DNA of 64,000 bases from Planctomycetota bacterium (GTDB lineage Bacteria > Planctomycetota > SZUA-567 > H5-PLA8): assembly GCA_016200135.1 (NCBI GenBank), contig JACQFI010000115.1, forward strand, positions 1 to 64,000. The letters are read 5' to 3'. The notes beneath the pieces were generated by a model, which saw only the letters and a list, made by a program, of their open reading frames with translations, was not told the origin of the DNA and ran no database searches. Both the position numbers and the translations under genes were made by a program. Below, in pieces: positions 16,905 through 64,000 of this stretch. Within the stretch, counting starts at the first letter, position 1; every line of letters starts with the position of its first letter.

Positions 16905-16920
16905 TTCTGTGCTAGAAAAT
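16905..16920 (-). promoter_or_regulatory. Conserved upstream motif TTCTGTGCTAGAAAAT, copy 2 (~126 bp upstream of the 16779 start)
   Basis: Exact 16-mer match to copies at 12097 and 26044. An additional half-site-like CTAGAAA lies at 16873-16879. Confidence 0.45.
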
Positions 16921-16976
16921 TACGGTACTGCCCTCTCGGTTCTCCAGACGGCGAAGCGAGGCGCCGGCGCTCCAAA

Positions 16977-19634: not shown

Positions 19635-19639
19635 GCACT

Positions 19640-21454: not shown

Positions 21455-21496
21455 TTTCTTCTCCTACTACCGCTGGTCCTGTTGCACCCTCCGCCA

Positions 21497-23275
21497 TCAC
21501 CTCGCCGTCAGATCGTAGCAGGCGACACCATCGACAAGACGCAAATACAATTTGTCGGCGGCAATGGCTGGGGAGCTGTACACATTGACTTTCGGGTTGA
21601 AAAGGCCTAGCTGGATATATTTCTCGGGAGTGGCTTTGACCATCTCGACCTGAAAACTGCCGTCATAATGGCCTTTCCCGAAAATATTGACGATCTTGCC
21701 GTCGGCCAGGGCCGTCACATTGCAAAGCGTTTCGCCGGGAAGCGCCTGGGTCCACCGGAGGGCGCCGGTTTTCATATCCAGACAATACCAGACCGCGCCG
21801 CTATCCGAGCAGCCCATCACAAAAAGAGAATCTTGAGCGACGAGATAACTTCCCCTCTCGTTCATTTTCACCGTCTGCTTCCACAGGAGCGTGGCGGCGG
21901 CTGGCGTCACCTTGTAGGCTTCCACTTGGGTCGCGCCGCGCAGAATCAGAGTGTCGCCGCTGAGGACCGGCGTGAAGATACTGGGCGCGCCCGGCACGCT
22001 CCAGACAACCTTTCCAGTATCCAATTCAAGACAGCACCAGGAGCGATTGCCGTCGGTGGTGATGATATAATCTTTGCCTGCCGCAGACCATAGAATCGGA
22101 GAACTGACATTTGCGGCAAATTCCCATTGCCTCAAGTTGGACTTCCATTGAGGGTGTTTCCAGAGCAACTTGCCGTCGGTGGCGTTGTAGGCCGCGCCGC
22201 AGTGATACACCACTCCCTTGGCGACCAGCGGCGAGGCATGCGCCGGTTCATCCTTCACCTGCCACAAGAGAACACCGTCCTTGGCCGACAGGCAATACAA
22301 CCCCATGATCCCGGCAAAGTAGCACTTACCCTCCGAGAGGGTCGGCGTGCCGCTGGCGCCAATGTATCCAAAACCGCCATTGCCCACGTTCAAGTAGCGC
22401 ATCACCCGCTCCCGATCTTCCGGGAAATCTTTTTTCCAGAGTTCTTTTCCCGAGGCGGCATCCAGGCAGACGAGCGTGTCGGACTGCGTACTCGCTCGCA
22501 ACCAGGCGTTGGGTATAAGCCAGCCGGCTTTGTCGTCGAAAACCGCTCTGTCAAAAAACAACTCGCTTCCCGACCTTTTCTGGTAATTCCAGGCAAACTC
22601 CGTCTCCTTGTCGCGCCACGCGCTCATCTTGGTCAATTCGTCCCATGTGAAACCGCCCGTCGGATTCCAACCCTTTTTCGGTCCGGATATGCAGAGCCGC
22701 CGTTTGATATACGTTCCGTATTTTTGGGCGTCTGCCGGAGACAGGGTAGCGACGAAATCCTTGATGTACTTGTCCACTTCCGGCGTTTGCGCGATGAACG
22801 CTTCAAGCTCTGCATCCTTCGGGCCGGTGACGGCATACCAAGGCGGCGCTTTGGCGCAGCTCGGCCGGTTGGGGGAAGCCCAGGATTCTTCGATCTTCTT
22901 CGCCAACGCGTCGGGAAGGTCCGGCAACCAGCCGGCATCCAGCAGCAATTCCGTCGTGACCAGGCGGTATTTGCGTCCTCCACCGACCGGACGCATCCAG
23001 TTGACGTACAGAAAAACTTTTCCATCCGCCACCACCGGACTGCCGGCGCCGCCCTCGCCGCAGCCGGGGATCCATTCGCTCTTCCAGACTTGCGGGGGGC
23101 CTTCCTTGGGCCAGGCGTCGAGCAGTTTGGGGCTATTGAGCGCGATGCCGTCGCGGTTGGGGCCGCGCCACTGCGGCCAGTCGGAACGCGCCGGGGCTTC
23201 CGCGCCTAAAAGCGTGGCGACGCCGCACATAAAGAGGTGCGCAGTGGCGGTCCGAAGATTCAGAGCAAGGGTCAT
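21497..23275 (-). CDS. Secreted PQQ-like beta-propeller repeat protein, short form
   Basis: Signal-like N-terminus followed by RSDWPQWRGPNRDG. 592 aa. Confidence 0.8.
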   Translation of the reverse strand: MTLALNLRTATAHLFMCGVATLLGAEAPARSDWPQWRGPNRDGIALNSPKLLDAWPKEGPPQVWKSEWIPGCGEGGAGSPVVADGKVFLYVNWMRPVGGGRKYRLVTTELLLDAGWLPDLPDALAKKIEESWASPNRPSCAKAPPWYAVTGPKDAELEAFIAQTPEVDKYIKDFVATLSPADAQKYGTYIKRRLCISGPKKGWNPTGGFTWDELTKMSAWRDKETEFAWNYQKRSGSELFFDRAVFDDKAGWLIPNAWLRASTQSDTLVCLDAASGKELWKKDFPEDRERVMRYLNVGNGGFGYIGASGTPTLSEGKCYFAGIMGLYCLSAKDGVLLWQVKDEPAHASPLVAKGVVYHCGAAYNATDGKLLWKHPQWKSNLRQWEFAANVSSPILWSAAGKDYIITTDGNRSWCCLELDTGKVVWSVPGAPSIFTPVLSGDTLILRGATQVEAYKVTPAAATLLWKQTVKMNERGSYLVAQDSLFVMGCSDSGAVWYCLDMKTGALRWTQALPGETLCNVTALADGKIVNIFGKGHYDGSFQVEMVKATPEKYIQLGLFNPKVNVYSSPAIAADKLYLRLVDGVACYDLTAR

Positions 23276-23350
23276 CGTGGGTTGTTCCTATCGGCGCTCC
23301 CGGCGCATGGACTGGCCAGGCGGCGATTGCGTGGTTTTTCTTTCGCGCGG

Positions 23351-51677: not shown

Positions 51678-52205
51678 TTACGGTCGCTGAACCGCCCTCG
51701 TGAGTACGGAGAGGAGATCGGCGCGTTCCCGCAGCGGCACCCAATGGGTCATGCCCGGCGCCCAGACCAGCGAGTTTTCATCGACCTTTCGCGTCCGGCA
51801 CAGTTCTTCCAGTCTTTTGAGATCCATCGGCCCGACCTTTTCGTTTCCAACGGCGACGAACCAGACGGCGCTCCCATCGCCCGGCAACGGCGGGGGCACC
51901 GGAGATTCCTGGACGGTTAGGACCGGAGGGTTCGGGGCCGACAGGGGAGCGGACGGCGGGCCGGCCAGTTTGGCCAACAGCACCGCATGCACCTGTTGCG
52001 CCTGGAGCCGTTCCTGTTTGCGTTCGTCTTCCTCGCGTCTCCGTTCGGCGCGTTCGCGCGCGTCGAGCGTGCGCTGCCGCTGGTAGTGCTGGCGCTTGCG
52101 GTCCGTCTCCTCTTTGAGGTCGGGCATAATGAAAAGAAGAGGGCCGGCCAGGAAAGGGGTAAGGAAGAGGGCGAGGAAGAACCAGGCGATCGCATTCCTG
52201 CCGCG
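51678..52205 (-). CDS. Membrane protein with C-terminal DUF4339 (GYF-like) domain
   Basis: Start chosen at MRGRNAIAWFFLALFL (the ORF extends to 52409). A TM segment and charged coiled-coil precede a C-terminal WFVAVGNEKVGPMDLKRLEELCRTRKVDENSLVWAPGMTHWVPL (DUF4339-like). Confidence 0.5.
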   Translation of the reverse strand, partial: RGRNAIAWFFLALFLTPFLAGPLLFIMPDLKEETDRKRQHYQRQRTLDARERAERRREEDERKQERLQAQQVHAVLLAKLAGPPSAPLSAPNPPVLTVQESPVPPPLPGDGSAVWFVAVGNEKVGPMDLKRLEELCRTRKVDENSLVWAPGMTHWVPLRERADLLSVLTRAVQRP

Positions 52206-52444
52206 CATGCCGGCAAGAACGGCGATGGCGAAATCGCCGGCCAGTAGTGCGAGAACCCAGAATTCTTGCAAGAGGACCTCCTTTCTTAAGCCGCGAGAAG
52301 GGTCAGATAAGCCGTATGGAAGGGGTTCCGGGCAAGGACAGGATAACGGTCCCGTCCGTATGAGCAAATAAGATTCTTGCGATAGCGTAAACGATTCTAT
52401 CGTCCGCATGCTCCCTGGCCGACAACCTATCCGGGGAGCGGCCC

Positions 52445-52846
52445 ATGAGCAATGCAGGCAGGAAGCGCAAAGCGGTCAAGATCGTGCACGACGACGTCAT
52501 ACATGCCTTTGCGACCCGCTTGAAAGAACTTCGCAGCGGGGCGGGCCTGTCCCAGCGGGAGCTGGCGGTGCGGGCGGGCGTGCATCTGACTTATATCAGC
52601 CGCCTCGAACGCGCGGAGGCCGCGCCGGGGCTGGACCTCATGCAGAAGCTATCCAAGGCCCTGGAGGCGCCCTTGTCCGATCTGCTTCCGGCCGAGGCCG
52701 GAAGTTCCTTGTCCATAAAGCAGGCACAGGCACGGCGGCGGCTGGAATCGATCCTGCGCAGGGCGGATGCCGCTACGCTTGGGACGTTGAATGCGCTGCT
52801 GCTCCTGATCGATCAGGAAGTGAGCCGGCACAAGCGCCGTACGTAA
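52445..52846 (+). CDS. XRE-family helix-turn-helix transcriptional regulator
   Basis: LRSGAGLSQRELAVRAGVHLTYISRLERAEAAPGLDLMQKLSKALEAPLSDLL is a canonical Cro/C1-type HTH. Confidence 0.75.
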   Translation: MSNAGRKRKAVKIVHDDVIHAFATRLKELRSGAGLSQRELAVRAGVHLTYISRLERAEAAPGLDLMQKLSKALEAPLSDLLPAEAGSSLSIKQAQARRRLESILRRADAATLGTLNALLLLIDQEVSRHKRRT

Positions 52847-53119
52847 AGGACGCTCCGTGCGACGCGCACGCCTTCCCGATCGCATCCGCCGATCATGCCA
52901 ACCCATGCGTGCCCAAAGGCACGCATGGGCTGGTCCTAGCCGCTACTTGCGCCCAGCTTCGAGCGCGGCTGTGGCGGCTGCCGCCACCGCCACAAGGAGG
53001 ATGCGGACCCAAGGCGCCATAGCTCTTGCTCCTTTCCGGTCCGGCCAGAGGATCGCGCGCGGCCGGCCCGCCGGACCTTCTGTCGGGCCGGCCGGGCGTT
53101 TGGGAACCTTCCTAAGGAG

Positions 53120-53359
53120 CTATAGGCAGGACTCGATCCAGGCGGCTTCGGCGGCGAGGGCTTGCTCGCGGTACTCGTAGGGGCCGAGGACGGCGCCTCC
53201 CAGCGGCGCGAGGTCCACGATCCAGCGGGCATCCGCGGTGGGTTCGACGTGCGAGGCGCGTGAGATCACCGGTGCGCCATGCTCAAGCAACGAGCGCAAG
53301 GCATCGGCGTAAATAAACTGCAGGGATCCGTCCGCACGAAGGAAGATCAGATGTTCCAT
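53120..53359 (-). CDS. Small hypothetical protein (79 aa), last gene of the AAA-DUF1257-DUF2997 unit
   Basis: Good Shine-Dalgarno (AGAGGGAG) 7 nt before the ATG. Starts 14 nt after the DUF2997 stop. Confidence 0.45.
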   Translation of the reverse strand: MEHLIFLRADGSLQFIYADALRSLLEHGAPVISRASHVEPTADARWIVDLAPLGGAVLGPYEYREQALAAEAAWIESCL

Positions 53360-53372
53360 GGCCGCTCCCTCT

Positions 53373-53591
53373 TTAGGGGCCGGCCTGGAGTCGGCGATCC
53401 CGTTCTTCGGTCTGGGTGAACTCGGCGGTCGTGCGGTCCTTCATGGTCTGGCCCAGCGAAGTCTCCAGCCGGCGCGTCAGGTCCCGGCAACCGGGACCCG
53501 CATATCCCTTGACCTGAACCTCAACCGCGCCATCGGCCGAGATCGTGACCTGTATCTGGCATTGCATACGCTTCCTCTCAGCGAAATTCAT
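53373..53591 (-). CDS. DUF2997-family small protein
   Basis: MQCQIQVTISADGAVEVQVKGYAGPGCRDLTRRLETSLG matches the DUF2997 pattern (I-x-V-x-dG-x-v-x-v-x-G-f-x-G-x-x-C). Assigned from memory of the family. Confidence 0.55.
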   Translation of the reverse strand: MNFAERKRMQCQIQVTISADGAVEVQVKGYAGPGCRDLTRRLETSLGQTMKDRTTAEFTQTEERDRRLQAGP

Positions 53592-53599
53592 CGCGCTCT

Positions 53600-53959
53600 C
53601 TAGGCCAGAAGGCGCAGGACGACCGAGCCGTCCTCGCGTTCTTCGCGCCGCACGGCCATGCCCATGCGCTGGGCCTGCCGGACGGCGACGCGCTCGGAAT
53701 AGGTCCTCAAGACCCGGTCCAGCGCTGCTCTCGTGCCCCAGGCGCCGTTGAAGTTGTCGAACTGGACCGTGCCGTCGGCCAGCACGGCCACGGGGTAGCG
53801 CCAGTCCTTGAGCTGAAAAGAGGCCGCGGCCTGGACGCGGCCGGAATAAAGCTTTACTTCCCGGGCGCCGAGGTCGCAGGGCACGCCCAGGTGCCCACAG
53901 ACCTCGGCCAGTATCGGCAGGTCTCTCAGTCGGACCTGCACGGTGGCGATATGACTCAT
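53600..53959 (-). CDS. DUF1257 (Ycf35-like) family protein
   Basis: MSHIATVQVRLRDLPILAEVCGHLG ... FDNFNGAWG resembles cyanobacterial Ycf35/DUF1257. Assigned from memory. Confidence 0.55.
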   Translation of the reverse strand: MSHIATVQVRLRDLPILAEVCGHLGVPCDLGAREVKLYSGRVQAAASFQLKDWRYPVAVLADGTVQFDNFNGAWGTRAALDRVLRTYSERVAVRQAQRMGMAVRREEREDGSVVLRLLA

Positions 53960-53987
53960 GCGGTACGCTCCTTTATGTAGGGACCGT

Positions 53988-55547
53988 TCAAACCTCCACG
54001 GCGACGGGTTGCCGGGACCGGTCGGACTCGAGGCTCAGGCCCGCGGCCACGGCCCGGCCGCTGCGGCACCAGTCGCGCAAGGCCTCGATCTTCTCGGGCA
54101 TCGTCTTGGAGAGCGGCACGGTCTCCCGGAGGGCCTTCAGGACGTCCTGAAGGTCGAGCTTGCGCATCCGGTCGTGGAAGGCCTCGACGAGCGCGTTCTG
54201 GACGGCGGCCTCCAGTTCCGCGCCGGTGAATCCCGCGCAGGCGTGGGCCAGATCGAGCAGGTTGGCCGGCTCGAAGCGCTGCCCGGCGCGTTCCAGGTGA
54301 ATGCGCAGGATCTCCGCGCGGGCCTCGGTTCCCGGGAGGTCCACGGCGAAGATCTCGTCGAATCGGCCTTTGCGCAAGAGTTCCGGCGGCAGCGCGCCGA
54401 TCTCGTTGGCCGTCGCCACGACGAAACACTCGGCCTTCTTGTCGGAGAGCCAGGTCAGCAGGGCCCCGAAGACGCGCTGCGCCGTGCCGCCGTCGTGGCC
54501 GCCGCCGGGACCGAAGGCCTTCTCGACCTCGTCCACGAGGACCACGCAGGGCGCGATCGCCTCGGCGGTCCGAATGGCCTGCCTTAAATTCGACTCGGAC
54601 TCGCCCACCAGGCTCCCGAAGAGCCGCCCGGCGTCGAGCCGGACCAAGGGCAGCCGCCACGCGGCGGCGACGGCCCGCGCTGCGAGGGTCTTGCCCGTCC
54701 CCGGAACGCCGACCAGAAGCACGCCTTTGGGCGGCAGGATGCCGGCGGCCCGCGCCGCGTCGCCGAAGAGACTCGTGCGCTTGGCGATCCAACTTTTAAG
54801 GTTCTCCAGGCCGCCGATATCCGCCATGCCGTGCTCGGGCTCCTCGTATTCGAGCACGCCGGTGCGGCGGACGATCTGGCGCTTCTCGCGGATCGCGAGG
54901 CGGATCGCGTCCGGGCCCAACGCGCGATGATTGACCAGTGAGAGCGCGACGAGGTTGCGCGTCTCGTCCAGGGTGAGCCCCTGGCAGGCGCGCGCGAGAG
55001 CGGGCAGCGTGGCCTCATCGACGGTGACTTTTCCGGCGAGTTGCTCCCGGTAGAGCACGGCGAGGGACTGCACGTACTCGCAGAGTTCGCCTCGGGTCGG
55101 AAGCGGCAGATCGGCGATGAAGAGATCCGACTGCAGCTCCGCGGGAATCCGCCAGTCGCGGCCGACCAGGACCAGGGCCTTGCCCGAGCCGCGGGCATGC
55201 GCGAGAGCTTCCCGAAGCGCGCGCACGAAGATCGGGTTGCTAAGCTCGGCCCAGGGATCGAGCAGGGCCAGGACGACATTCTCCTGGGTCTTCCGAAAGG
55301 CATTCAGCGCCTCGTCCAACCCACACGGATCCTGGAGCGGACGCTCGGGTTCTTCGTCGTCCAGGGACAGGCGCTGCAATCCCGAGGCCGAGGACCAACG
55401 CCACAGTACGCGCGGAACCAGCTGGCCTGACAAGGCCTGGACGGCTTGGCGCAGGGCCACGATGGCCCGGGCCTCTTCGAGGGTGCGCAGATGAACTCCG
55501 GGGAGCCTCGCTTTCAAGGCCGCCAGGAGCGCATGGATCGCTTGCAT
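53988..55547 (-). CDS. Classical AAA+ ATPase (CDC48/FtsH-clade AAA domain; Ycf46-like) with ~250-aa N-terminal domain
   Basis: Walker A GVPGTGKT, Walker B VVLVDEVEK, and the second region of homology. The start was chosen at MQAIHALL (the ORF opens at 55652). A competing Arg-rich frame was rejected. Confidence 0.8.
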   Translation of the reverse strand: MQAIHALLAALKARLPGVHLRTLEEARAIVALRQAVQALSGQLVPRVLWRWSSASGLQRLSLDDEEPERPLQDPCGLDEALNAFRKTQENVVLALLDPWAELSNPIFVRALREALAHARGSGKALVLVGRDWRIPAELQSDLFIADLPLPTRGELCEYVQSLAVLYREQLAGKVTVDEATLPALARACQGLTLDETRNLVALSLVNHRALGPDAIRLAIREKRQIVRRTGVLEYEEPEHGMADIGGLENLKSWIAKRTSLFGDAARAAGILPPKGVLLVGVPGTGKTLAARAVAAAWRLPLVRLDAGRLFGSLVGESESNLRQAIRTAEAIAPCVVLVDEVEKAFGPGGGHDGGTAQRVFGALLTWLSDKKAECFVVATANEIGALPPELLRKGRFDEIFAVDLPGTEARAEILRIHLERAGQRFEPANLLDLAHACAGFTGAELEAAVQNALVEAFHDRMRKLDLQDVLKALRETVPLSKTMPEKIEALRDWCRSGRAVAAGLSLESDRSRQPVAVEV

Positions 55548-55684
55548 ATAAAGGATCTCCTGAGGTTCTGACGTGGGTTGATGGAGGTGCGACGACCGAA
55601 TGGCGATCCGGTTCCTGCGTGGCTTGCCAACACGCGCGGCTTCAGTATTCATTGCCGCATTCCAACCATAAAGGAGGGGGAAAC

Positions 55685-55843
55685 ATGGCGGCCAGACGGG
55701 GCTCTAAGAACGCGGGCAAGAGGCCGTCCAGCGTAAAGCGCGGCCGGAAGGCGATCTTCACGCCGGCACAGAAGAACGTTCTGGAGCGGATGATCCGGTC
55801 CTCGCTTAAGGGGGAACTGAAGACGCTGGTGAAGTCGCTGTAG
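55685..55843 (+). CDS. Small basic protein (52 aa) on the opposite strand, wedged between two minus-strand genes
   Basis: Strong SD AAGGAGGGGG 6 nt upstream of the ATG at 55685. Sequence MAARRGSKNAGKRPSSVKRGRKAIFTPAQKNVLERMIRSSLKGELKTLVKSL. Confidence 0.45.
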   Translation: MAARRGSKNAGKRPSSVKRGRKAIFTPAQKNVLERMIRSSLKGELKTLVKSL

Positions 55844-55897
55844 TCCATTTCTTCGCATGCCTCTCTTCCGAGACCAGCCCGGGCGGCCTTTCACGGC

Positions 55898-56944
55898 CTA
55901 AGCGCTCTTCTGCGTTACCGCCTGCACGTTTTCCTCTACGATGGGGGTCGGCACCGCCTGCGATGTCACCAGCGCCGGAAGCTCGACCAGAGCCTGGTCT
56001 AGAGCCGGCAGGACGGCCTGGACCCTCGGCGAAGAGACGGCCAGCAGGTCGCCGTCAAAAGCCGTGCGCACGATCTGTCCCAAGGCTCCGCCAAGCCTGC
56101 CGGCATGCGCCAGTGTGGCCATCACGTCCAGGTCCGCCTTGGCCACCAGGGCCAGATCAAGCTCCGAGGTGCGGACCTTCGCAAGCAGACCGGCGGCGTC
56201 GGCGGAGAGGCTGCGCGCGAAGACTTTGACCCGATCGAGGTGCTCCGTGAGCGCCTTCCAGCGGTGGCGCGCCTGGCGCTTGGTGAGCCCGTCTTCGGCG
56301 CGTGCTTTTTGCATCTCCTCGAAAAGCCGGACGAGGTCCTCGCGCACGGACTGCACCAGCACCTCCAAGGCCTTCTCGCGGACCAGCTCGTTCTCCAGGC
56401 CCACGGGAACGATTAAGCACTCGCCGCCCAGTTCGCTCACGAACCGGGCCACGCGCTGGAGCAGCCCGCGGTTCTCCCGCGGCACGAAATAGACCGCGCC
56501 GGCATGGCGGAGACTCAACAGGCCTTTCTGGCGTTCGAAGATGCGCCGGACGACCTTCGAGACGTCGCTGGGCAGATAGAGCGCGCCGTAGCGGGCAAAG
56601 AGCGCCTGGACCTTTCCGAACAGCGCCGCGTTGTCGCCGCCCACCGTCTGGGTCTGCTTGTCGAACCAGAACGCGGCCTCGAACTCGTAGCCCAGCCGCT
56701 CCTGCTCGCGGTAGCGGCGCGAGAGCTGCCAGGTCCAGCGCGCCTCGGTCTCCTCGACCTCGTCGATCAGGCCGTCGGCGCGCATGCGGTTTTTGGCCCG
56801 GACGAAGCAGAAACGCTTGGCGAGATCGCGGGCGAACTGCGCGTCCAGGCCGGTGCACTCCAGGGCGCTGCGCACGCGTTCGACGGTCACGGTGGGCAGC
56901 CGGTCCAGGAAGAATATAGAACCCATCGATGGCGAGATTTCCAT
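55898..56944 (-). CDS. Hypothetical protein (~349 aa) in the Ubl-cassette island
   Basis: Balanced composition. Start chosen at MEISPSMGSIFFL. No recognised motif. The alternative frames 56157-56858 and 56302-56919 are Arg/Pro-rich and were rejected. Confidence 0.5.
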   Translation of the reverse strand: MEISPSMGSIFFLDRLPTVTVERVRSALECTGLDAQFARDLAKRFCFVRAKNRMRADGLIDEVEETEARWTWQLSRRYREQERLGYEFEAAFWFDKQTQTVGGDNAALFGKVQALFARYGALYLPSDVSKVVRRIFERQKGLLSLRHAGAVYFVPRENRGLLQRVARFVSELGGECLIVPVGLENELVREKALEVLVQSVREDLVRLFEEMQKARAEDGLTKRQARHRWKALTEHLDRVKVFARSLSADAAGLLAKVRTSELDLALVAKADLDVMATLAHAGRLGGALGQIVRTAFDGDLLAVSSPRVQAVLPALDQALVELPALVTSQAVPTPIVEENVQAVTQKSA

Positions 56945-57058
56945 CTGTTGCACCTCCTTGAGAGACAATCGGGCCGCGTCCATGCCGCCGGATACGGAAG
57001 GACCGAAGAAATGGAATCGTGAGGTGCCGCCAGGGCTTAACGAAGTGACCCCTTGCGA

Positions 57059-57355
57059 CTATTTTGGACTAGATTCTTTTGAAATGTGCTTCCAGACGGC
57101 GTGCTTGACGGATAAACGCCTTTTCAAGATCCCCCATAAGGCAGGCGCCCTCGAACGGTTCTCCACGGTCCAATCCACGCGGCCTCTTCCCGACGGCTCC
57201 AGGATGGCGCCCAGCAGATAGGCCAGGTCCACGCCGATCTCGTCTTCGGCAAAAGACGCGGTCTCAGCGAAGGCAAGTTCGAAGATCTCGCGGGCCAGCC
57301 GTGCCCGTCGAAGAGCACGTACCCTCGAGGCACGTAGGCCATGTGCTGAATTCAT
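57059..57355 (-). CDS. Small hypothetical protein (98 aa)
   Basis: SD AAGGAGAG 9 nt upstream of the ATG at 57355. Confidence 0.4.
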   Translation of the reverse strand: MNSAHGLRASRVRALRRARLAREIFELAFAETASFAEDEIGVDLAYLLGAILEPSGRGRVDWTVENRSRAPALWGILKRRLSVKHAVWKHISKESSPK

Positions 57356-57419
57356 GCGCGAAAGCTCTCCTTCGTTCCTATGATCCCTTGCTACGGAGGC
57401 AGGCGGACGAATGTCCCGT

Positions 57420-58169
57420 TCAGGAACCGCGCCGCGCCAACTCGACGATCAGCGGCGGGAAGTCGCGTTCGCCTTTCTCTTCCAGAAACGCTTCCCACAT
57501 GCGCTCGAGCATGTCCGTGTCCACGGTGACCTCTGCGCGGAAACGCTCGCTTACATAGTCGAGGAAGCCGTCACAGTCCGAGCCGCAGATCCATTCCCGA
57601 TCCACCACCTCGGACTCCGCGTCGTCCCGAGCCTCCTGCCGGCGGTGGCGTTCGGCCTGGCGTGCGGCGTTGCGCCGCTCGCGAGCCTGGCGCACCCGCT
57701 TCGAGAGGCCCGGTGCGTTCGCGTCCTCGTCCGGTTCGACGTCTTCCGCGAGAGGACCGTCGTACGTGCCGTAGGTCTCCTCGTACGCGTCCTCGCATTC
57801 CTCGCAATAGGACCGGCAGTCGTCCCTCACGTAGTCGTAGTCGGGAAGGTCCACGCCGTCGTCCTTCCAGTCGGGATAGACTTGGTTCGTGAACTCGATC
57901 AGAAGCGCGCGGACGTGGGGACTCGGGATCTCGTCGAAGAGGTCGGCATCGAGATGGTAGTCGTCGGAGAACGCGAAGGTCGGCAGCCCGCAGCGCTTGC
58001 GGACGATTCCTTCCATAAATAGGACATACTCGCCGATCCAGGTCCCGTCGGCCTCCTCCGAGCCGTGGTCGTCGCGGGAGTCCACTACCTCCAACTTGGG
58101 GACGTCGACGTGCGGCAAGCCCAGTCGCTGCTTCTTCAGAGCCAGGGCGCTGAGCACGAAACAGGCCAT
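57420..58169 (-). CDS. Highly acidic hypothetical protein (249 aa, Asp/Glu-rich with a Cys-containing segment) immediately downstream of E1-like gene
   Basis: SD AAGGAGG 5 nt upstream of the ATG. DYDYVRDDCRSYCEECEDAYEETYGTYDG; the C-terminal half is basic/acidic mixed. Confidence 0.5.
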   Translation of the reverse strand: MACFVLSALALKKQRLGLPHVDVPKLEVVDSRDDHGSEEADGTWIGEYVLFMEGIVRKRCGLPTFAFSDDYHLDADLFDEIPSPHVRALLIEFTNQVYPDWKDDGVDLPDYDYVRDDCRSYCEECEDAYEETYGTYDGPLAEDVEPDEDANAPGLSKRVRQARERRNAARQAERHRRQEARDDAESEVVDREWICGSDCDGFLDYVSERFRAEVTVDTDMLERMWEAFLEEKGERDFPPLIVELARRGS

Positions 58170-58181
58170 GCGTCCTCCTTG

Positions 58182-58901
58182 TCACGCGTTGACCGGAACG
58201 AGCGCCATCGCGCAGTTCCCGGCGTCGAAATAGACTTCCTGCGGCACTACGGTGTTCTTGCGGCGCCCATGGCGCGCGCCATGGGTCCAGAGCGCGTGAA
58301 AGGCCGCCAGAAGACTGGCCGCGGCCAGAAAATTCGTGACGAGCAACTGCGTCTCGCCTTGTGCGACCCGCTCTTCGCAGCCAGCCTCCGCGCGGTCGCC
58401 TTTCAGGCTGTGGGCGACCTCGGGGTGGCGGGCGAGCAGGGGCACCGTCAGGTCCTTCGCTCCGCGGCGCAACGTGACGTGGACGTTCCCGTCCAGGGTC
58501 TCGTTGCCGGACGACAGGACATAGACCTCGCGCAACTCCGCCGCGCGCCGGGCGATCAGCGCCCGCGCCGGATGATTGTCGACGGCCACCAAGATCAGGG
58601 CACGTTCACACACGGCCGCGTGGACGTTTCCAGATGTGACGTACTCGGCATGAACGCGCAGCCGCAGGGCCGGATAGCGGCCCGTGAAAATCCCCGCCTG
58701 CCCCAGCGCCTTGTTGGCGCCGAGGTGTTCGAAATCAAACTCCTGGCGCGCGGCGTTGCCCGCGCTGTAGCGGTCGCCGTCCCAGAGGTGGATCGCGCCC
58801 TGAAAACGCTCCGCATTCAAGAAGCGCAGCAACGGTCCAAGTAGCCACGACCCGATCCCGCCGCAGCCGATCAGGGCCATACACTCAACGTTTCGAACCA
58901 T
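58182..58901 (-). CDS. ThiF/MoeB-family E1-like adenylyltransferase (minimal ubiquitin-activating-enzyme-like)
   Basis: The start is refined to MVRNVECMALIGCGGIGSWLLGPL (Rossmann GxGxxG), then DGDRYSAGNAARQ (nucleotide-binding Asp/Arg). SD GGGAGGGA precedes the ATG. Overlaps the JAB gene by 17 nt. The long N-terminal ORF extension (to 59381) was rejected as Arg/Ser-rich. Confidence 0.75.
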   Translation of the reverse strand: MVRNVECMALIGCGGIGSWLLGPLLRFLNAERFQGAIHLWDGDRYSAGNAARQEFDFEHLGANKALGQAGIFTGRYPALRLRVHAEYVTSGNVHAAVCERALILVAVDNHPARALIARRAAELREVYVLSSGNETLDGNVHVTLRRGAKDLTVPLLARHPEVAHSLKGDRAEAGCEERVAQGETQLLVTNFLAAASLLAAFHALWTHGARHGRRKNTVVPQEVYFDAGNCAMALVPVNA

Positions 58902-59724
58902 GGGTCCCTCCCTCGAGTTCCAGGTGCTCGGCCGCCCAGAGCCGCTCTTCGATCTCCTCCCGCATCTGCTCCAGGTGTTCGAGGTACTCCTCGCGGCTCG
59001 CGAAGGGTTCTCCGAGCAAATCGCACCAGCGTTCGTCCGTCTCCGTGCCCAAAGGCACGGGGGTGAATAACTCCCGTTCCAGCACAGGGGCGGGGCTGAC
59101 CTGTGCGAGCCACGCCGGGTCAGGCGCCGGCAGGTCTTCCGCTTCCAGGACCTCGGCCAGGTCCGTCTTGAACGCGCGCCCGGCCAACATCCAGCGGCAG
59201 GCATACGAGCGGATGGGCTTGTCCAGATTCCCGACCGTGATGTGCAAACCATCGAAACCGCTCTCGTCGGCATCGTCCGTGCCGGAGTGAAAGGCCTGGA
59301 TGTCCGCGTGCGAATGGATGGAGCCGAAGAGCTGGAATCCGGCCGGTGCGTTGGGCCGCGCGTGCAGGTCGTACTCCACACGCAGTCCGCGCACCTGTTG
59401 CGGCGGAACGATCACGCGCCACGCTTTCACGTTCGGGTTGCAATAGAGCAGGACGACCGCCTCGCTCTGATAACGCCGATAGACCTCGCCAAAAAAGCCC
59501 TCCACCGCGCGAAAGAGCTTTAACGGCAGCAGCGGCACATGCAGCTCCGCTTCTTCCTTGAGATCGGCCAGCGACGGGATGCCGTCGAGCTTCACGCAGG
59601 CGGTATAGAATTCGTTGCGCACGAGCTTGAAGAGGCCGTTCGCGCCGGAAGCGAAACAGACGGGCGCGTCGGGCAACGCGACTTCAGCTCCCGGCAGCGG
59701 CTTGGGTACCGGATATATCTGCAT
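58885..59724 (-). CDS. JAB/MPN (JAMM) metallopeptidase, deubiquitinase-like
   Basis: Intact JAMM motif HSHADIQAFHSGTD (H-x-H-x7-S-x2-D), with upstream acidic residues. Start refined to MQIYPVP. Confidence 0.8.
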   Translation of the reverse strand: MQIYPVPKPLPGAEVALPDAPVCFASGANGLFKLVRNEFYTACVKLDGIPSLADLKEEAELHVPLLPLKLFRAVEGFFGEVYRRYQSEAVVLLYCNPNVKAWRVIVPPQQVRGLRVEYDLHARPNAPAGFQLFGSIHSHADIQAFHSGTDDADESGFDGLHITVGNLDKPIRSYACRWMLAGRAFKTDLAEVLEAEDLPAPDPAWLAQVSPAPVLERELFTPVPLGTETDERWCDLLGEPFASREEYLEHLEQMREEIEERLWAAEHLELEGGTHGSKR

Positions 59725-60025
59725 GGCTGCCCGCCTTTCTCTTTTTTGAGGGCTTTGTTTCGTTCGGGAGGCGCTGCAAAGCATCCTCCAATGCCTGGAA
59801 CCGTTTGCCCTTCCGGCGCACGGACTCCCGCAAGGTCACCGCGCCGCGCGCGTAGTAGGTGAACTGAGCGCAGAGAACTTGCCCAGGCGAGCCGGGAAGT
59901 TGCGCGAGGGTTTCCAGGTCCGCGTCGAGCAGATGGTTCAAAAATTCTTCCAAGGACCTCGTCCCGGCAGCTGGACAACGGCACAGGATGGCGTTCAGGT
60001 CAGGGCTCTTGGCCACGGGATCCAC
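59684..60025 (-). CDS. Candidate small ORF (GTG start, ~113 aa) between the E2-like and JAB genes; unknown, possibly a second small partner protein
   Basis: Open frame with an SD-like GGAAAGGAGG just upstream. It overlaps the JAB start by 40 nt. No recognisable motif. Confidence 0.25.
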   Translation of the reverse strand: MDPVAKSPDLNAILCRCPAAGTRSLEEFLNHLLDADLETLAQLPGSPGQVLCAQFTYYARGAVTLRESVRRKGKRFQALEDALQRLPNETKPSKKRKAGSHADISGTQAAAGS

Positions 60026-60035
60026 CCTCCTTTCC

Positions 60036-60761
60036 TTATCCAGGGTGTTCGGCCAGGAATTTCAGCATCTCGCCCACGTGGGCGCGCAGATGCTGCTTGA
60101 GTTCAAGCTGCGCGTGGAACTCGGGATCTTTTCCAGAGGCCAGCGCCCAGTCTTCCAGGCTCTTGATCGCCAGGCCCTCGAAGGAAGGCAGGAGGTCGCC
60201 GTTCCAGGCCGATTCGAGCACCTGGCGGATCAGGGCCGTGACGCGCACGCCGGCCGGCGCCTTGGTCTCTTCCAGGCTCAGGTTGCCCATGCAGAGGGCG
60301 CCGTTGCCCTCCTCGTAGATATTGGGCATGGGGAGGCGGAAGAGAGGCGTGTCGTGACCGGTTTCGAGAACGGGCGTGCGCGTCGCCGTCAGCCACAAAT
60401 CCTGGATCGCGGCGCACTCCGCACTCGGCGCCTGACTGGTCCGGCAGAACCAGAGCGTGCGCGGCCAGGAGAGCGTGAGTTCGTTGGCCTCGTGGCCGCC
60501 GCGCACCGCGTTGTACTGGACCACCTGAAGGCCCGGCGGGCGTTCGATCAGATAGATCGTGCGCGTGCGTTTATTCTCGTCGCAGGCCCGCGAGAACAGC
60601 ACGCAGCCCTCGGGCAGGAACCCCGAGTCCACGGGCTGCGTGCGCGCGAGTTCGGCCAAGAAGTCCGTCGTCGTGGCTTCCCGTTCCACGACCGTCCGTT
60701 CCAGGCGCACCAAGTCGCCCTCGATCAGGATGCGCTTTCCTTCCGATGTGACCGCGGCCAT
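60036..60761 (-). CDS. UBC-fold E2-like ubiquitin-conjugating-enzyme homolog
   Basis: PMPNIYEEGNGALCMGNL closely mirrors the eukaryotic E2 active-site signature HPN-I-x3-4-G-x-IC-L (catalytic Cys after the HPN-like turn). SD AGGAGG precedes the ATG. Confidence 0.65.
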   Translation of the reverse strand: MAAVTSEGKRILIEGDLVRLERTVVEREATTTDFLAELARTQPVDSGFLPEGCVLFSRACDENKRTRTIYLIERPPGLQVVQYNAVRGGHEANELTLSWPRTLWFCRTSQAPSAECAAIQDLWLTATRTPVLETGHDTPLFRLPMPNIYEEGNGALCMGNLSLEETKAPAGVRVTALIRQVLESAWNGDLLPSFEGLAIKSLEDWALASGKDPEFHAQLELKQHLRAHVGEMLKFLAEHPG

Positions 60762-60847
60762 CCCATTCCTCCTTTGGAAAAAAGGCGCGCCCCGTCTGGC
60801 GGACAGCCGGGGCGCGCCGAGGCTTGCCTTAGGAATGCCGGCGGCGC

Positions 60848-61066
60848 TTACGCGGCGCCTTTCTCGCCGGCCACTTTGACGAACTCGACGCTCGCGCCTT
60901 CGGGCACGCGCGCGTCCTCCGAGACGGGCGCGCCGTTGATGCGCGGTTGCGCGTTGGCCGCTACGCCGAGCAGGTCGCCGACCTCGTCGCGGACCTCACG
61001 AATCGTCTTCCCTGCCAAGCTGTCCAAATTGGTGCTGTTAACGCCACAACGAACGCAGATGCTCAT
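60848..61066 (-). CDS. ThiS/MoaD-like beta-grasp ubiquitin-like protein (72 aa)
   Basis: MSICVRCGVNSTNLDSLAGKTIREVRDEVGDLLGVAANAQPRINGAPVSEDARVPEGASVEFVKVAGEKGAA has the ThiS/MoaD pattern (M-I-V-x-x-G ... TV-x-L-x-x-LG ... V-x-NG-x-V ... L-x-eGD-Ve-f). SD GGAGGG lies 8 nt upstream of the ATG at 61066. The C-terminus is not Gly-Gly and may be processed by the JAB peptidase. Confidence 0.55.
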   Translation of the reverse strand: MSICVRCGVNSTNLDSLAGKTIREVRDEVGDLLGVAANAQPRINGAPVSEDARVPEGASVEFVKVAGEKGAA

Positions 61067-61158
61067 GAGAAATACCCTCCAACACGATGAGAAGAAATAA
61101 TGCGGCCTCCGGCGCCCGTTGCGCCGGCAGGTTAGGAGTCGAAGAACGCGGAAAGCGC

Positions 61159-61443
61159 TCAGCGGGACGAAACGGCCTTCCGCTTGGGACGACGAATAAG
61201 GCGACGCAGCCATTCTCCCGGCGGCAGGCTGAGCGGCTGCGTGCACCCGTCGCAGAGCAGGAGGATCGGCGCCACCGGCTCGAACGCCTTCGGCATCGGT
61301 CGGAAGGCCTTCCAACGCTTCGGGGAGAGCTGCTGCACCGGATGAACGCGTAGCGTGGCGACCAACACCACGAAGCCCGTGCGATTCCCGCATACCGGGC
61401 ACCGGACCGGACCTCGGGCCCTGGGAGCGAACGAATTTTTCAT
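61159..61443 (-). CDS. Small zinc-ribbon protein (94 aa)
   Basis: C-P-V-C ... C-D-G-C gives four Cys in ribbon spacing. SD GGAGAT 7 nt upstream. Confidence 0.4.
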   Translation of the reverse strand: MKNSFAPRARGPVRCPVCGNRTGFVVLVATLRVHPVQQLSPKRWKAFRPMPKAFEPVAPILLLCDGCTQPLSLPPGEWLRRLIRRPKRKAVSSR

Positions 61444-61486
61444 GGTTAGGATCTCCGTGCGAGCGCGCCCAGAAAGCGAACGCGTA

Positions 61487-61705
61487 TCAGGTGGGGACCG
61501 CCAGGCGTCGGCGCGTCCGGGGGCGGGCGAGTTCCTCCGCGAGCAGTTCGACGATCTCTTCCAGGGCCTCGTCCACGGCCAGGCCCTCCCCCACCCCTTC
61601 GAGGGCCCGGTCCACGGCGGCGACCTCGGTGACGATCTGCCGGATCCGGCCGAAGGCCTCGTCGCGGCGGCGGGGTGGCATCTGGAGTACGTTGAGCGTG
61701 CGCAT
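61487..61705 (-). CDS. Small acidic helical hypothetical protein (72 aa)
   Basis: SD AAAGGAG 9 nt upstream of the ATG at 61705. Confidence 0.35.
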   Translation of the reverse strand: MRTLNVLQMPPRRRDEAFGRIRQIVTEVAAVDRALEGVGEGLAVDEALEEIVELLAEELARPRTRRRLAVPT

Positions 61706-61810
61706 GGTTCGAGACTCCTTTCAAGAAAGTTGCCTTGGAAAAACCGGACCGGACACCCGGCCCGGGTACAAAAGAATGACGTCAGCGGATTAGTGTCGGA
61801 TTCCGTGCGA

Positions 61811-62629
61811 TTAGCGGCCCAGACACCGGACCCGGAACGGACAGCTCGTGCAGGGCCAGCCCTCGCGCCTGGGGAAGGCGCGTGCCCGGATCGCCGTCCA
61901 GGTGGCCTGGACCTGTTCCTTCAGGCGCGCGGTCTCCGGCGCGCCGACCGGCGTCTCCAGCACCTGCACCCTGGGCTGGCGGGCCTTGGTGAGCACGACG
62001 AAGCGGGCCCGGACCTCCCGCACGCCCAGCGTCCGCGCCCAGGGCGCGAGACCTTCCACGTAGATCACCAACTGCGAGACCTGCTCGCGCAGCTTGCTCT
62101 CGTTCCAGGCCGCACGGGCGGTCTTCAGATCGGTCAGGAGCAACGTGTCGCCCTCGCGTTCGATCAGGTCCAGCCGCGCGTGGATCGGCGGGGCGTCCGG
62201 CAGGAGCCGGAAGCGTGCCTCCTCCTCTATCCCTAAGACCTCCCGGGCGCAGCATTCGGGCCGTTCCAGATGCTGGCGATAGGCAGCAAGCATCCGGCGG
62301 GCCTGGTCGCTCAGGGACAGCGGGCCTTCGCTCGGCCCGTAGACGATCTGCGGGCGCGCGCGCGCCTGCTCTCCCCAGGCGCCCTCGTAGATCGCGGTCA
62401 GGGCCTCGGCGCTCGGAAGCCCGCGGCCGAGCAGCCGTGCCTCGTGCAGGCGTTCCGTGGCCGTATGGAACGCCGTGCCGAAGAGTAGCGCCGCAGGCGC
62501 GCGTTCCTCCGGTGCGCGTTCGAGATAACGGTAGAAATATTTTTGTGGACACTGCGCGTAGGTTTGCAACGCGGACCACGAAGTATGGTCGACGTCGGCG
62601 GGGGCGTCTCTTGTTTTCGCATTCGACAT
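61811..62629 (-). CDS. PD-(D/E)xK nuclease, Cas4/AddB-like with Fe-S cysteine cluster
   Basis: One N-terminal Cys (YAQCPQKYF) plus a C-terminal CTSCPFRVRC, which is the Cas4/DUF83 4-Cys arrangement. Central acidic/Lys residues (DLIE, DLK) are consistent with a PD-(D/E)xK core. Start refined to MSNAKTRD with SD GGAGAG. Confidence 0.6.
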   Translation of the reverse strand: MSNAKTRDAPADVDHTSWSALQTYAQCPQKYFYRYLERAPEERAPAALLFGTAFHTATERLHEARLLGRGLPSAEALTAIYEGAWGEQARARPQIVYGPSEGPLSLSDQARRMLAAYRQHLERPECCAREVLGIEEEARFRLLPDAPPIHARLDLIEREGDTLLLTDLKTARAAWNESKLREQVSQLVIYVEGLAPWARTLGVREVRARFVVLTKARQPRVQVLETPVGAPETARLKEQVQATWTAIRARAFPRREGWPCTSCPFRVRCLGR

Positions 62630-62684
62630 GCGTGGCTCTCCTTTTTCAGTCGGGTAGGAAAAGACGGCAGGCTTCGGGAAGACT

Positions 62685-63116
62685 TCAGGGGTGGGTGCCG
62701 CAGGCGGCCAGGCGTGACTTGAGATCGTCGATCGCCTTAGAGGCACCGACGATGCTGAGCGGGGCGGCCTCGGTCACGCCCTGCTCGGCCAGGAACGGCT
62801 CGGGCTCAAGCCCCAGGTCCTTGCAGAGGGCCCGGATCGCCCGCAACTGCGCATTGGTCGCCGGCGCGATGCGCCGTGTCCCATGCCCATTGCCGTTGCC
62901 GTTTCGAACGGCGGTGACCGGTGGAGAGCTGTTCTCTGGCAGCGAATGGGCCGCACCCTCGGACGAGATCGTCTCTTGGCGATCGTGATCATGTGCCGGT
63001 TGTTTCGCGAGGACGCTCAATTGCTCTTGGATACATCCGTCCAGGAGCGTGTAGAGTTTGCGCAGCTTCCGTTGTATGGCCGCGGGCTTCGCGGTCCCTG
63101 CGAGTTCCAGTTCCAT
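62685..63116 (-). CDS. Hypothetical protein
   Basis: Open frame. Start chosen at MELELAGTAKPA (the ORF extends to 63197). An AT-rich putative promoter patch lies upstream at 63281-63330. Confidence 0.35.
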   Translation of the reverse strand: MELELAGTAKPAAIQRKLRKLYTLLDGCIQEQLSVLAKQPAHDHDRQETISSEGAAHSLPENSSPPVTAVRNGNGNGHGTRRIAPATNAQLRAIRALCKDLGLEPEPFLAEQGVTEAAPLSIVGASKAIDDLKSRLAACGTHP

Positions 63117-63372
63117 CGTGGCCCCGACCTGCAGGCTGGAATAAGGCACGCCGGGCAGCGGCGTCTTGCGCGAGAGGTTTCCAGAAATGCGAACCATGAG
63201 AGGCTCCTTATTTTTGGGTGAAGGGGGTAGCGGGGCAACGGGCGCCGACAGGCTGGGCCGGCCATTAGGTCATAGGCGACGTCCAATACATACTATAATA
63301 ACACATAAATACATATATTTTAGGAGGCGGGCACAAAGCCGGCCGTTGGCGTGCCTCGGGCCGCCCGAGATC

Positions 63373-64000
63373 TCAGGCGGCGGCCCAGGAAGCGCCCCAG
63401 GCGTGGGAGCTGAGCCGTAATGCGTACGTCAAGGCATGCAGCACGTCGTCCTGGCCGCCACTGGGACAGACGAAGCGATGGCGCCGGGCGGCGTTGTCAT
63501 AAAGCGCGGTCTCGTGCCAGAGCTCTTCGAGGCATTTCCCGCAGTCCGTGAGCCTGGGGAAGCGGATTTTCTTTTTCTTGATCCGCGTAAACACTTCGCC
63601 GATCCATGCAGTGCGATCGACGGTCCAGCGGTACATGCTCCGAGAAAATTGGGGACTCGACTCCGTATCCGCATACATCAGGCCGTAAAGCCCTAGGCTG
63701 CGGTGGGCCTCCTGGCAGTTCATGAGCAGCAGGCGGTTCAGAACGGAGCCGTTGCCGTTCGCGTCGGCGGCCACCAGATCGATCCCGAGTGCGATTATCA
63801 AGTCCTTGGCCCGCGCCAGAGCGTCATCGAAACCGTCGGCGATCGGCATCGACTCCAGATGGAGGACCTGAAAGATCCCCTGGGCGTCGTGGGCGCCCAC
63901 CACGAACGCCGTACGCGAGTTCACGCCGCCGGACCAGTCGATGCCCAGCACCAGGGACTGCAGCATCAGGTTCACACCGCTCAACTTCTGCCGCTCCCGT
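63373..64000 (-). CDS. Partial CDS (3' part; continues beyond window) with RNase-H-like nuclease domain resembling phage terminase large-subunit C-terminal / RuvC-like resolvase
   Basis: LVLGIDWSGGVNSRTAFVVGAHD resembles the first strand and acidic residue of terminase/RuvC nucleases. The frame is still open at the window edge (no stop upstream of 63984). Confidence 0.35.
   Translation of the reverse strand, partial: RERQKLSGVNLMLQSLVLGIDWSGGVNSRTAFVVGAHDAQGIFQVLHLESMPIADGFDDALARAKDLIIALGIDLVAADANGNGSVLNRLLLMNCQEAHRSLGLYGLMYADTESSPQFSRSMYRWTVDRTAWIGEVFTRIKKKKIRFPRLTDCGKCLEELWHETALYDNAARRHRFVCPSGGQDDVLHALTYALRLSSHAWGASWAAA

Follow-up and report, generated by a model that had tools for sequence, protein, structure and literature searches.

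Conjugation of ubiquitin-like proteins (Ubls) by bacterial systems, such as Bil, Bub and the Cap2/Cap3 pair of the cyclic-oligonucleotide-based anti-phage signalling system (CBASS), has only recently been shown to work, and the fate of the tagged proteins is open. Of these, Bil and the CBASS pair Cap2/Cap3 act against phages (PMC11601603, PMC10557695), and the E1 of Bil combines tandem inactive and active adenylation domains with a Cys domain that is mobile (Cys417) (PMC10557695). PRTRC has been catalogued as a mobile-element system (PMC3318190). It is a ParB-related, ThiF-related cassette comprising the NCBIfam families TIGR03734-TIGR03742, and occurs on integrative and conjugative elements, plasmids and genomic islands. 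To our knowledge, such PRTRC-type cassettes of mobile elements are uncharacterised. Here we describe a Ubl cassette found in 64,000 nucleotides of DNA from a Planctomycetota bacterium (assembly GCA_016200135.1, contig JACQFI010000115.1, positions 1 to 64,000 of the forward strand); this whole stretch is called the window. We consider it fairly probable that an integrated, phage-related mobile element occupies the region from ~53.1 kb rightwards, that one arm of it is visible in the window, and that this arm has one operon that joins the Ubl cassette to an AAA+ module and has an accessory role.

The Ubl cassette and its described relatives

The cassette encodes a predicted Ubl precursor, E2-like, JAB and E1 proteins, along with p110, an acidic protein and p98 (Table 1). 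In seven homologues of the Ubl the segment EFVKVAGEKG is invariant and is followed by one to six variable residues. Its best PDB profile matches are to the ubiquitin-like FUBI and are not significant (E 0.08); we infer a beta-grasp fold for it. The E2 family matches Prok-E2_D weakly, a Foldseek search with the predicted E2 model gave no significant match, and PDB sequence searches with the E2, the JAB protein and the terminase discussed below gave no match. In the JAB protein, E88, H137-S-H139, S147 and D150 are invariant and agree with the E...HxHx7Sx2D motif, and it is a candidate for both trimming the Ubl tail and removing conjugates. The E1 retains an invariant GxGGxGS motif, R52, D108 and C175, its sole invariant Cys, and its PDB profile matches are ThiF, MoeB, TcdA, UBA2 and UBA5. 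In the acidic protein, which has no family match, five Cys residues are invariant (Cys118-x3-Cys122-x2-Cys125 and Cys195-x3-Cys199). This CxxxCxxC plus CxxxC spacing is reminiscent of metal or Fe-S sites, and the protein is a possible adaptor, E3-like protein or target. A second, partial E2 homologue, 67% identical to that of the window (P0007, HY291_11485), lies at the end of another contig (44,863 bp) of the same metagenome-assembled genome (MAG), so that the cassette is present twice, in diverged copies, in this genome or bin.

Among curated families those of PRTRC are nearest, the best matches of the window E1, JAB and E2 being PRTRC_ThiF, PRTRC_A and PRTRC_B, respectively. The protein sizes also agree, with a single-domain E1 of ~240 residues and an E2-like protein of ~230 residues in both, and both systems are found on mobile elements. 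However, all three proteins fall well short of the family cut-offs: the E1 scores 49.5 bits against a cut-off of 144.75 for TIGR03736 (E 3.3e-13), even though this is its best NCBIfam match, the JAB protein 31.8 bits against 101.8 for PRTRC_A (E 9.8e-8), and the E2 12.2 against 131.45 bits for PRTRC_B, a family that 5 of the 16 E2-family members match weakly. The Ubl, p110, p98 and p72 give no match to PRTRC proteins C to F at E<=1, and the acidic and DUF6744 proteins match no PRTRC family at E<=0.01. A ParB gene is absent from the window, and a weak ParB_N gene is seen upstream of the cassette in one relative only (L087). Furthermore, the window has extra conserved partners, namely the acidic Cys protein, DUF6744, AAA+, DUF1257-like and DUF2997 proteins, and its host is a Planctomycete and its element phage-related in our reading.

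With Bil (type I/II BilABCD) the cassette shares the gene order Ubl-E2-JAB-E1, to which the window adds p110 between E2 and JAB, a Ubl with a conserved Gly and a short variable tail, and a JAB/JAMM peptidase (PMC10557695, PMC11601603). In contrast, the window E1 is a protein of 239 residues with a single ThiF domain and no tandem adenylation domains, and seven or more further conserved genes accompany the cassette. A PADLOC scan, in a release that may lack Bil models, returned no match for the Ubl, E2 or JAB and placed the E1 with CBASS E1-E2 models only. That match to the CBASS models (4e-9), the weak Prok-E2_D similarity of the E2 and the single adenylation domain of both the E1 and Cap2 are points of likeness to type II CBASS. 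However, Cap2 is an E2-E1 fusion with a cyclase as its target, whereas the window E2 and E1 are separate genes, and a free 72-residue Ubl takes the place of the CD-NTase C-terminus. No cyclase or effector family was found in the window operon. We accordingly rejected membership of PRTRC, Bil or CBASS, a defining feature or cut-off being missed in each. Judged by these family comparisons, the locus is a new form of Ubl-conjugation system, carried by a mobile element, and belongs to none of the three families.

The conserved residues support enzymatic activity of the predicted E1, E2, JAB and nuclease (see below), and likewise a function for the Ubl. Read together with E1/E2/JAB enzymology, they suggest that the JAB peptidase would trim the two residues that follow Gly70 of the Ubl, after which the single-domain E1 would adenylate Gly70 and may carry the Ubl as a thioester on Cys175. 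The Ubl would then move to Cys157 of the E2 and from there to target proteins, and JAB could reverse this conjugation.

Operon architecture and related loci

All genes between 52.4 kb and the window end lie on the minus strand, the XRE regulator excepted, and those from p170 (63197) to p79 (53120) form one co-directional operon of nineteen genes with short gaps, some overlaps and Shine-Dalgarno (SD) motifs before most genes. The reading frames and their sizes were reproduced by gene calls on independent Logan unitigs that are 100% identical to the window (<=5.9 kb each, recovered by exact-protein look-up). Family scans bear out the gene set listed in a first-pass annotation of this DNA (HTH_3, DUF2997, AAA, ThiF, JAB and PDDEXK_1). 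The small or 'hypothetical' open reading frames (ORFs) that it reported, along with the 249-residue acidic protein and the zinc ribbon, are real genes, since they are conserved in other contigs, at 35-77% amino-acid identity.

In the window-type lineage, a 582-kb ENA contig (L103/L104) carries the complete p170-p79 series in the same order at 35-76% amino-acid identity; its DUF6744 protein is also annotated in the Planctomycete MAG HS116. This operon contains insertions, namely a DNA ligase and an opposite-strand NYN gene, and its p79 homologue is followed by an AlpA/HTH_17-like xis gene, a tyrosine integrase (14922-16178), tRNA-Leu(CAA) (16266-16354) and the housekeeping genes nuoA-F. The ligase, a WGR-domain ATP-dependent enzyme (4775-5851 in L103), has a 52% identical counterpart ~5 kb upstream of the module in L091 (2222-3181), where a group II intron reverse transcriptase comes after it. 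In a further locus, L106, a large serine recombinase is followed by the nuclease, p72, zinc ribbon, DUF6744, AAA+, p119, DUF2997 and p79 genes, while the Ubl, E2, p110, JAB, E1 and acidic protein genes are all absent. L105 retains p170, the nuclease, the zinc ribbon and DUF6744, and nothing else of the operon. Because the backbone occurs without the cassette in L106, the Ubl cassette can be read as an insert. By this comparison, the operon is a mosaic of a backbone (p170, the Cas4/RecB-type nuclease, p72, zinc ribbon, DUF6744, AAA+, DUF1257-like, DUF2997 and p79) and an inserted ~4-kb Ubl cassette (57059-61066).

A distant clade (L087, L088, L089 and L094-L097; E2 45-48% identical to that of the window, GC 54-58%) retains p72, the Ubl, E2, JAB, E1, acidic, DUF2997-like, DUF1257-like, DUF6744 and AAA+ proteins, with the homologues of p98 and p110 fused into one protein of 213 residues. 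Its gene order is rearranged, the nuclease is missing and the flanks are all different: conflict-type genes in L088 (NERD-kinase, MAD7 and a TrwB-like giant protein) and L089 (reverse transcriptase, Imm33 and trypsin), and RuvB-like, DUF2201, the weak upstream ParB_N and recombinase genes in L087. In L097 the module directly follows the gene of a large serine recombinase, and that recombinase gene is ~2 kb away from a tRNA-Ser gene. Genes for a RuvB-like AAA protein, a MoxR-like AAA_5 protein and DUF2201 lie near the module in L087 (2156-5549), L097 (18750-20652) and L106 (1-2884), with positions and orientations that vary and with the first two alone in the stretch of L097 covered; possibly these genes, too, belong to this family of elements. 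Two further loci, L098 and L099 (8896-10932), hold a degenerate variant: the first 32 residues are missing from the E2 match, which starts at residue 33, and JAB is not followed by genes for E1, the acidic protein, DUF6744 or AAA+.

Across these loci DUF6744 follows the cassette wherever the downstream side is visible (the window, L087, L088, L089, L096, L097, L100 and L103), and AAA+ follows DUF6744 wherever the contig reaches, L088 and L100 ending within or just after DUF6744. The converse fails, as the L106 backbone makes plain. All named homologues come from Planctomycetes. Among viral contigs in IMG/VR, one (L092) has a distant E2-JAB-E1 set that adjoins genes for a Prim-Pol primase and a PDDEXK_1 nuclease; neither DUF6744 nor p170 had any match in IMG/VR scans, and the nuclease had distant matches only. 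The E1 has no relative among sequenced phages and one among plasmids, a 29% identical protein of the Butyrivibrio hungatei plasmid pNP144 (L121, 71529-72260), whose gene is surrounded by those for Rad52, a helicase, Pol III delta and SSB, a replication/recombination module of a mobile replicon.

As collinear copies of the block have unrelated flanks and adjoin recombinase or tRNA genes, these neighbourhoods indicate that the block is carried by integrative mobile elements. This agrees with the proposal of the first-pass annotation that an accessory block has been acquired here, the recombinase genes being alongside in L103, L106 and L097. The compositional contrast for which that annotation proposed tests is missing: the relative synonymous codon usage (RSCU) of the island correlates at 0.977 with that of 28 host ORFs (host subsets of equal size: 0.982 +/- 0.010), GC content at third codon positions (GC3) is 0.816 in the island versus 0.840 in the host, and the tetranucleotide distance of the island is within the range of the window. 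With composition so host-like, the element would be long resident or drawn from a host-adapted pool. Elsewhere in the window, 14000-23300 and 2000-3000 have a GC content of 0.53-0.60 versus a typical 0.62-0.71; large ORFs within the lower-GC stretches (9094-11970 and 21497-23275) have a GC3 of 0.71-0.75, and a gap of ~1.5 kb at 1456-2978 holds no high-GC3 ORF.

The host-like composition, the lack of an integrase, att site or tRNA in the window and the restriction of named homologues to Planctomycetes would also suit an ordinary, vertically inherited Planctomycete operon that is neither mobile nor acquired. Yet no two loci have the same flanks, the block has recombinase genes and tRNAs as direct neighbours in L103, L097 and L106, the Ubl cassette is polymorphic in its presence, a second diverged copy exists in the same MAG, and the block is missing beside the HpaB operon of the closest genome. 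Strong SD usage, too, is specific to the island, with AGGAG or GGAGG before 12 of 17 island genes versus at most 7 of 28 host ORFs in a test generous to the host, any in-frame start within the first 35% of the ORF being allowed, and with an SD motif density of 2.18 versus 0.62 per kb. The SD signal is suggestive only, given that operon-internal genes may need such sites more. Vertical inheritance of an immobile operon is thus largely refuted, and we regard it as highly improbable.

The left border and the terminase gene

Left of 51.4 kb lie HpaB, GntR-FCD, CN-hydrolase and DUF2848 genes, the ordinary metabolism that the first-pass annotation had recognised there. The nearest species-representative genome is the Planctomycota MAG TGS_PLA7 (L002), with an HpaB 86% identical to that of the window; synteny with it is confined to the HpaB operon (46.36-51.41 kb), and right of HpaB the two have nothing in common. 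At the other side, collinearity with L103 and L106 ends at the convergent spacer between p79 and the XRE gene, which by this comparison is most likely the end of the conserved block. These observations support an element border between 51.42 and 53.12 kb, close to where the earlier annotation had drawn it, with the block end just left of p79; the XRE and GYF genes, inside this interval, may be of host or of element origin. The XRE gene has no homologue in any related locus compared. It is divergent from the GYF_2 gene, with 35 nt between the listed starts (52410-52444); the true GYF start may be more internal than listed, or else both genes are controlled from one very compact region. The other end of the element falls outside the window.

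At the window edge, an ORF runs to the last position with no stop codon, leaving ~310 N-terminal codons outside. Its match to the large-terminase family phrog_675 (8.8e-9) covers positions 360-543 of the 576 in the profile. An exhaustive HMMER search gave 109 relatives, the full-length ones having 505-526 residues and aligning at ~316-500, with N-termini that match the Pfam family GpA_ATPase at 40-70 bits (cut-off 25.6); relatives occur in 14 IMG/VR contigs. Three acidic residues of the nuclease domain, D21, D79 and D185, are invariant. These homologies identify the edge ORF as the nuclease part of a large terminase (TerL) of phage type, whose ATPase half, seen in the homologues, would here lie outside the window. 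Of the two identities first proposed for it, that of a terminase therefore stands, whereas a RuvC-type resolvase is excluded by the terminase ATPase domain of the full-length homologues. The terminase fragment had no match in the genome and metagenome contig collections.

The region thus resembles tailed-phage or satellite-type elements in the TerL nuclease domain, a phage-type exonuclease (phrog_69) and a phage-family AAA-ATPase (phrog_8638), and in L103 also in the AlpA-like xis, tyrosine integrase and tRNA-Leu at the block end. It differs from them in that the window holds no structural, lysis or integration genes, the genes after the terminase being non-structural.

Between TerL and p170 lies the candidate promoter region of the p170-p79 operon. 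Its AT-rich patch, previously described as unusual and as resembling a foreign promoter, does exist (GC 0.30 over 63281-63330). However, ~19 comparable low-GC 50-mers occur in the window, including those between host-part genes (e.g. 40.3-40.6 kb and 44.3-44.4 kb), and a scan for the sigma-70 consensus found no promoter site, so that neither the unusual nor the foreign character holds. A search of Rfam families gave no match. Logan unitigs from two samples stop within this spacer, at 63224 and 63241, and a unitig from a third sample (L086, 62521-63482) runs across the junction unbroken; the two ends could be due to poor coverage of the AT patch, or to a variant of the junction within the population.

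Several findings weigh against an integrated phage-related element with an accessory conflict function. The window contains no site-specific recombinase, att-like repeat or tRNA (the first-pass annotation had already noted the lack of a visible integrase or att repeat), and a search of it for remnants of the relatives' integrases found none. The deviant GC, codon usage or oligonucleotide signature by which recent islands are recognised is not seen. Outside the E2-JAB-E1 set of L092, the module is absent from IMG/VR and sequenced phages. PADLOC recovers no known defence family beyond generic AAA and E1 similarity, and in L106 the backbone does without the Ubl cassette and so need not be coupled to it. 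A self-match of the TerL ORF is missing from the protein database, whereas the E2 and DUF6744 proteins have exact matches in the same MAG (HY291_21910 and HY291_21880), and the ORF may have been annotated as a pseudogene or partial gene. Finally, in none of the relatives does a terminase adjoin the operon, so that the terminase may be part of a different element or of a decayed one. What the first-pass annotation took for a single island divides, in effect, into the backbone, the Ubl cassette inserted in it and a terminase gene that adjoins the operon here alone.

This last point leads to the alternative of two unrelated neighbours, a decayed prophage remnant of which the terminase alone is visible, and a separate integrative island that starts from the AT-rich spacer. 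Besides the solitary terminase without a self-match, the upstream content differs in every locus, the operon has its own spacer and an SD-led first gene, and the unitigs of two samples end in that spacer. Against this, the junction is continuous in the third sample, TerL is on the same strand as the operon and agrees with it in codon usage, and the catalytic residues of the TerL nuclease are intact. We consider such a juxtaposition rather unlikely. Taken as a whole, the first-pass interpretation is partly supported: its main thrust, a mobile, phage-related accessory block with a border near the XRE gene, is right, but compositional foreignness and the foreign promoter find no support.

Table 1. 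Annotated features of the right-hand part of the window (positions of the window; strand in the third column)
Feature	Coordinates	Strand	Remarks
GYF_2-domain protein	51678..52409	-	GYF_2 1.4e-13; absent beside HpaB in TGS_PLA7 (L002)
XRE-family helix-turn-helix regulator	52445..52846	+	HTH_3 E 1.1e-13; convergent with the operon
Convergent spacer	52847..53119	.	Hairpins 52898-52933 and 53056-53098 (inverted repeats I15, I10)
p79, last operon gene	53120..53359	-	Homologues end the operon in L103 (then xis, int) and L106
DUF2997 protein	53373..53591	-	DUF2997 4.7e-14; counterparts in L103, L106
Weakly DUF1257-like protein, 119 residues	53600..53959	-	DUF1257 E 0.037; 60-66% identical in L103, L106
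Classic-clade AAA+ ATPase, 519 residues from Met36	53988..55547	-	ORF extends to 55652; N-terminal domain ~290 residues
52-residue basic ORF, reality uncertain	55685..55843	+	Strong AGGAGG SD; no homologue in any related locus
DUF6744-family protein, 348 residues from Met14	55898..56944	-	Backbone gene
p98	57059..57355	-	Cassette protein
Acidic protein, 249 residues	57420..58169	-	Always after the E1 gene; no family match
Single-domain ThiF-type E1, 239 residues	58182..58901	-	ThiF 4.6e-14; candidate Cys175
JAB/JAMM metallopeptidase	58885..59724	-	Prok-JAB 9.9e-6, 25.9 bits versus cut-off 25
p110	59684..60016	-	Cassette protein between E2 and JAB
E2-like conjugating enzyme (predicted)	60036..60761	-	Candidate catalytic Cys157; motif MPNxY..GxGxxC
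Ubl precursor (predicted), 72 residues	60848..61066	-	Gly70, then two-residue tail
Zinc-ribbon protein, 94 residues	61159..61443	-	CPVC...CDGC; homologues in L090, L103, L105, L106
p72, small acidic protein	61487..61705	-	tblastn: L087, L088, L090, L094-L097, L101, L103, L106
Cas4/RecB-type PD-(D/E)xK nuclease	61811..62629	-	PDDEXK_1 6e-32 (112 bits, cut-off 22)
p170, first operon gene	62685..63197	-	Homologues at same position in L103, L105, 34-35% identity
TerL-p170 spacer, 175 nt	63198..63372	.	Holds AT-rich patch 63260-63343; candidate promoter region of the p170-p79 operon
Large terminase (TerL), C-terminal RNase-H-like nuclease domain	63373..64000	-	Open at window edge

The AAA+ backbone and possible roles of the cassette

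The AAA+ protein of the backbone matches AAA (1.1e-31), AAA_lid_3 and, over its full length, phrog_8638 (1.2e-133); it is 33% identical to mycobacteriophage AAA-ATPases and has partial matches to CDC48, PAN and FtsH. SD sites and homologues favour the starts Met36 for this protein and Met14 for DUF6744. AAA+/DUF1257/DUF2997 triads are otherwise represented by the Ycf46/Ycf35-type genes of cyanobacteria and plastids. Similarly, the AAA+, DUF2997 and DUF1257-like genes of the window are kept together through rearrangement: the DUF1257-like protein has a 105-residue counterpart in the distant clade, and a 70-residue protein of L087 aligns to the window DUF2997 at 30% identity (pairwise E 2e-5). 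They differ from the Ycf46/Ycf35-type triads in lying inside a mobile-element operon and in their linkage to a Ubl cassette. Of the AAA triad noted in the first pass, the AAA+ and DUF2997 members are secure, whereas the DUF1257 match is weak. The DUF6744 gene is present in all copies in which this part of the contig is available; nothing on DUF6744 was found in the literature, in which DUF2997 and DUF1257 have passing mentions. The gap between DUF6744 and AAA+ is 350 nt (55548-55897) in the window versus 65 nt in L103. The opposite-strand ORF of 52 residues listed earlier does have its strong SD but lacks a counterpart in any relative.

Upstream of the cassette, the nuclease also matches phrog_69 exonuclease (1.8e-18) and, below threshold, the cas4 family TIGR00372 (1.5e-7). 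Its invariant residues (Cys27, Cys260, Cys263, Cys269, D154, D167, K169, Q186 and Y190) make up a PD-(D/E)xK core, a QxxxY motif and a 1+3 Cys Fe-S cluster; with no CRISPR context it is not a CRISPR Cas4. The small protein p72 is found in all module copies in which this part of the contig is available, whereas the zinc ribbon is confined to the window-type lineage and has no family match. In the first protein, p170, a linker rich in G and N joins a conserved N-domain to a helical domain at the C-terminus ('ATAAQVRAIRA...DASRLIDDLKAR'); p170 has no match in Pfam, PHROG or NCBIfam.

Because the cassette is seen in this family only together with the DUF6744 gene and, wherever the contig reaches them, the AAA+ genes, it probably acts with or on the machine that they would form, as an add-on to the DUF6744/AAA+/DUF1257-like/DUF2997 set. 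In one version of this coupling, the Ubl, E1, E2 and JAB proteins would mark proteins that a Cdc48/PAN-like AAA+ ATPase, with DUF1257-like, DUF2997 and DUF6744 proteins as adaptors, would recognise, unfold or extract. Such a reading is permitted by the occurrence of the cassette only with DUF6744 (and AAA+ where the contig reaches), which persists when genes are rearranged and flanks are unrelated, and by the ability of the AAA+ set to stand alone, and we hold it as distinctly tentative, indeed unlikely as it stands.

As to what the cassette is for, an accessory conflict function, for example the exclusion of other phages or elements, appears most likely to us, and is the weakest step of the argument. 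Defence or exclusion is favoured by the cargo-like polymorphism of the cassette and its adjacency to recombinases, and also because the distant clade has conflict-type neighbours and both Bil and CBASS act against phages. With relatives and neighbours as its only basis, the defence role proposed in the first pass would still count as unproven. Alternatively, the cassette and the AAA+ module might serve the element itself: by tagging its own proteins or those of the host, they could control replication, recombination, partition, lysogeny or counter-defence. Their operon, which lies downstream of a terminase gene, also encodes p170 and a RecB/Cas4-type exonuclease; a DNA ligase lies inside the operon of L103 and ~5 kb upstream of the module in L091; the distant E2-JAB-E1 set of L092 is beside a nuclease and a primase; the sole plasmid relative of the E1 is among Rad52, helicase and SSB genes; the nearest curated families, those of PRTRC, were catalogued for mobile elements; and the full-length relatives of the AAA+ protein are phage genes. 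However, the Ubl cassette is dispensable for the backbone in L106, as cargo would be, the distant clade has no nuclease and lies among conflict-type genes, and the characterised relatives, Bil and CBASS Cap2/Cap3, are anti-phage (PMC11601603, PMC10557695). We view a role intrinsic to the element as a serious rival, without holding it to be probable, and retain the accessory conflict function as the preferred reading.

Together with its dozen or so relatives, the locus defines a compact, conserved module of 12-13 genes that links a classic-clade AAA+ ATPase with a minimal set of Ubl, E1, E2 and JAB. With it, Planctomycetes gain a further family of integrative, phage-related elements, for which the collections searched hold almost no related phage or viral sequences. 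The conserved pairing of the minimal cassette with the AAA+ module is its most interesting content: it offers a concrete case in which a possible bacterial link of tagging to unfolding can be tested, with L106 as a natural minus-cassette version for comparison. If tagged proteins are indeed passed to the AAA+ unfoldase, the module would be a bacterial, mobile-element-borne analogue of the ubiquitin-to-unfoldase logic.

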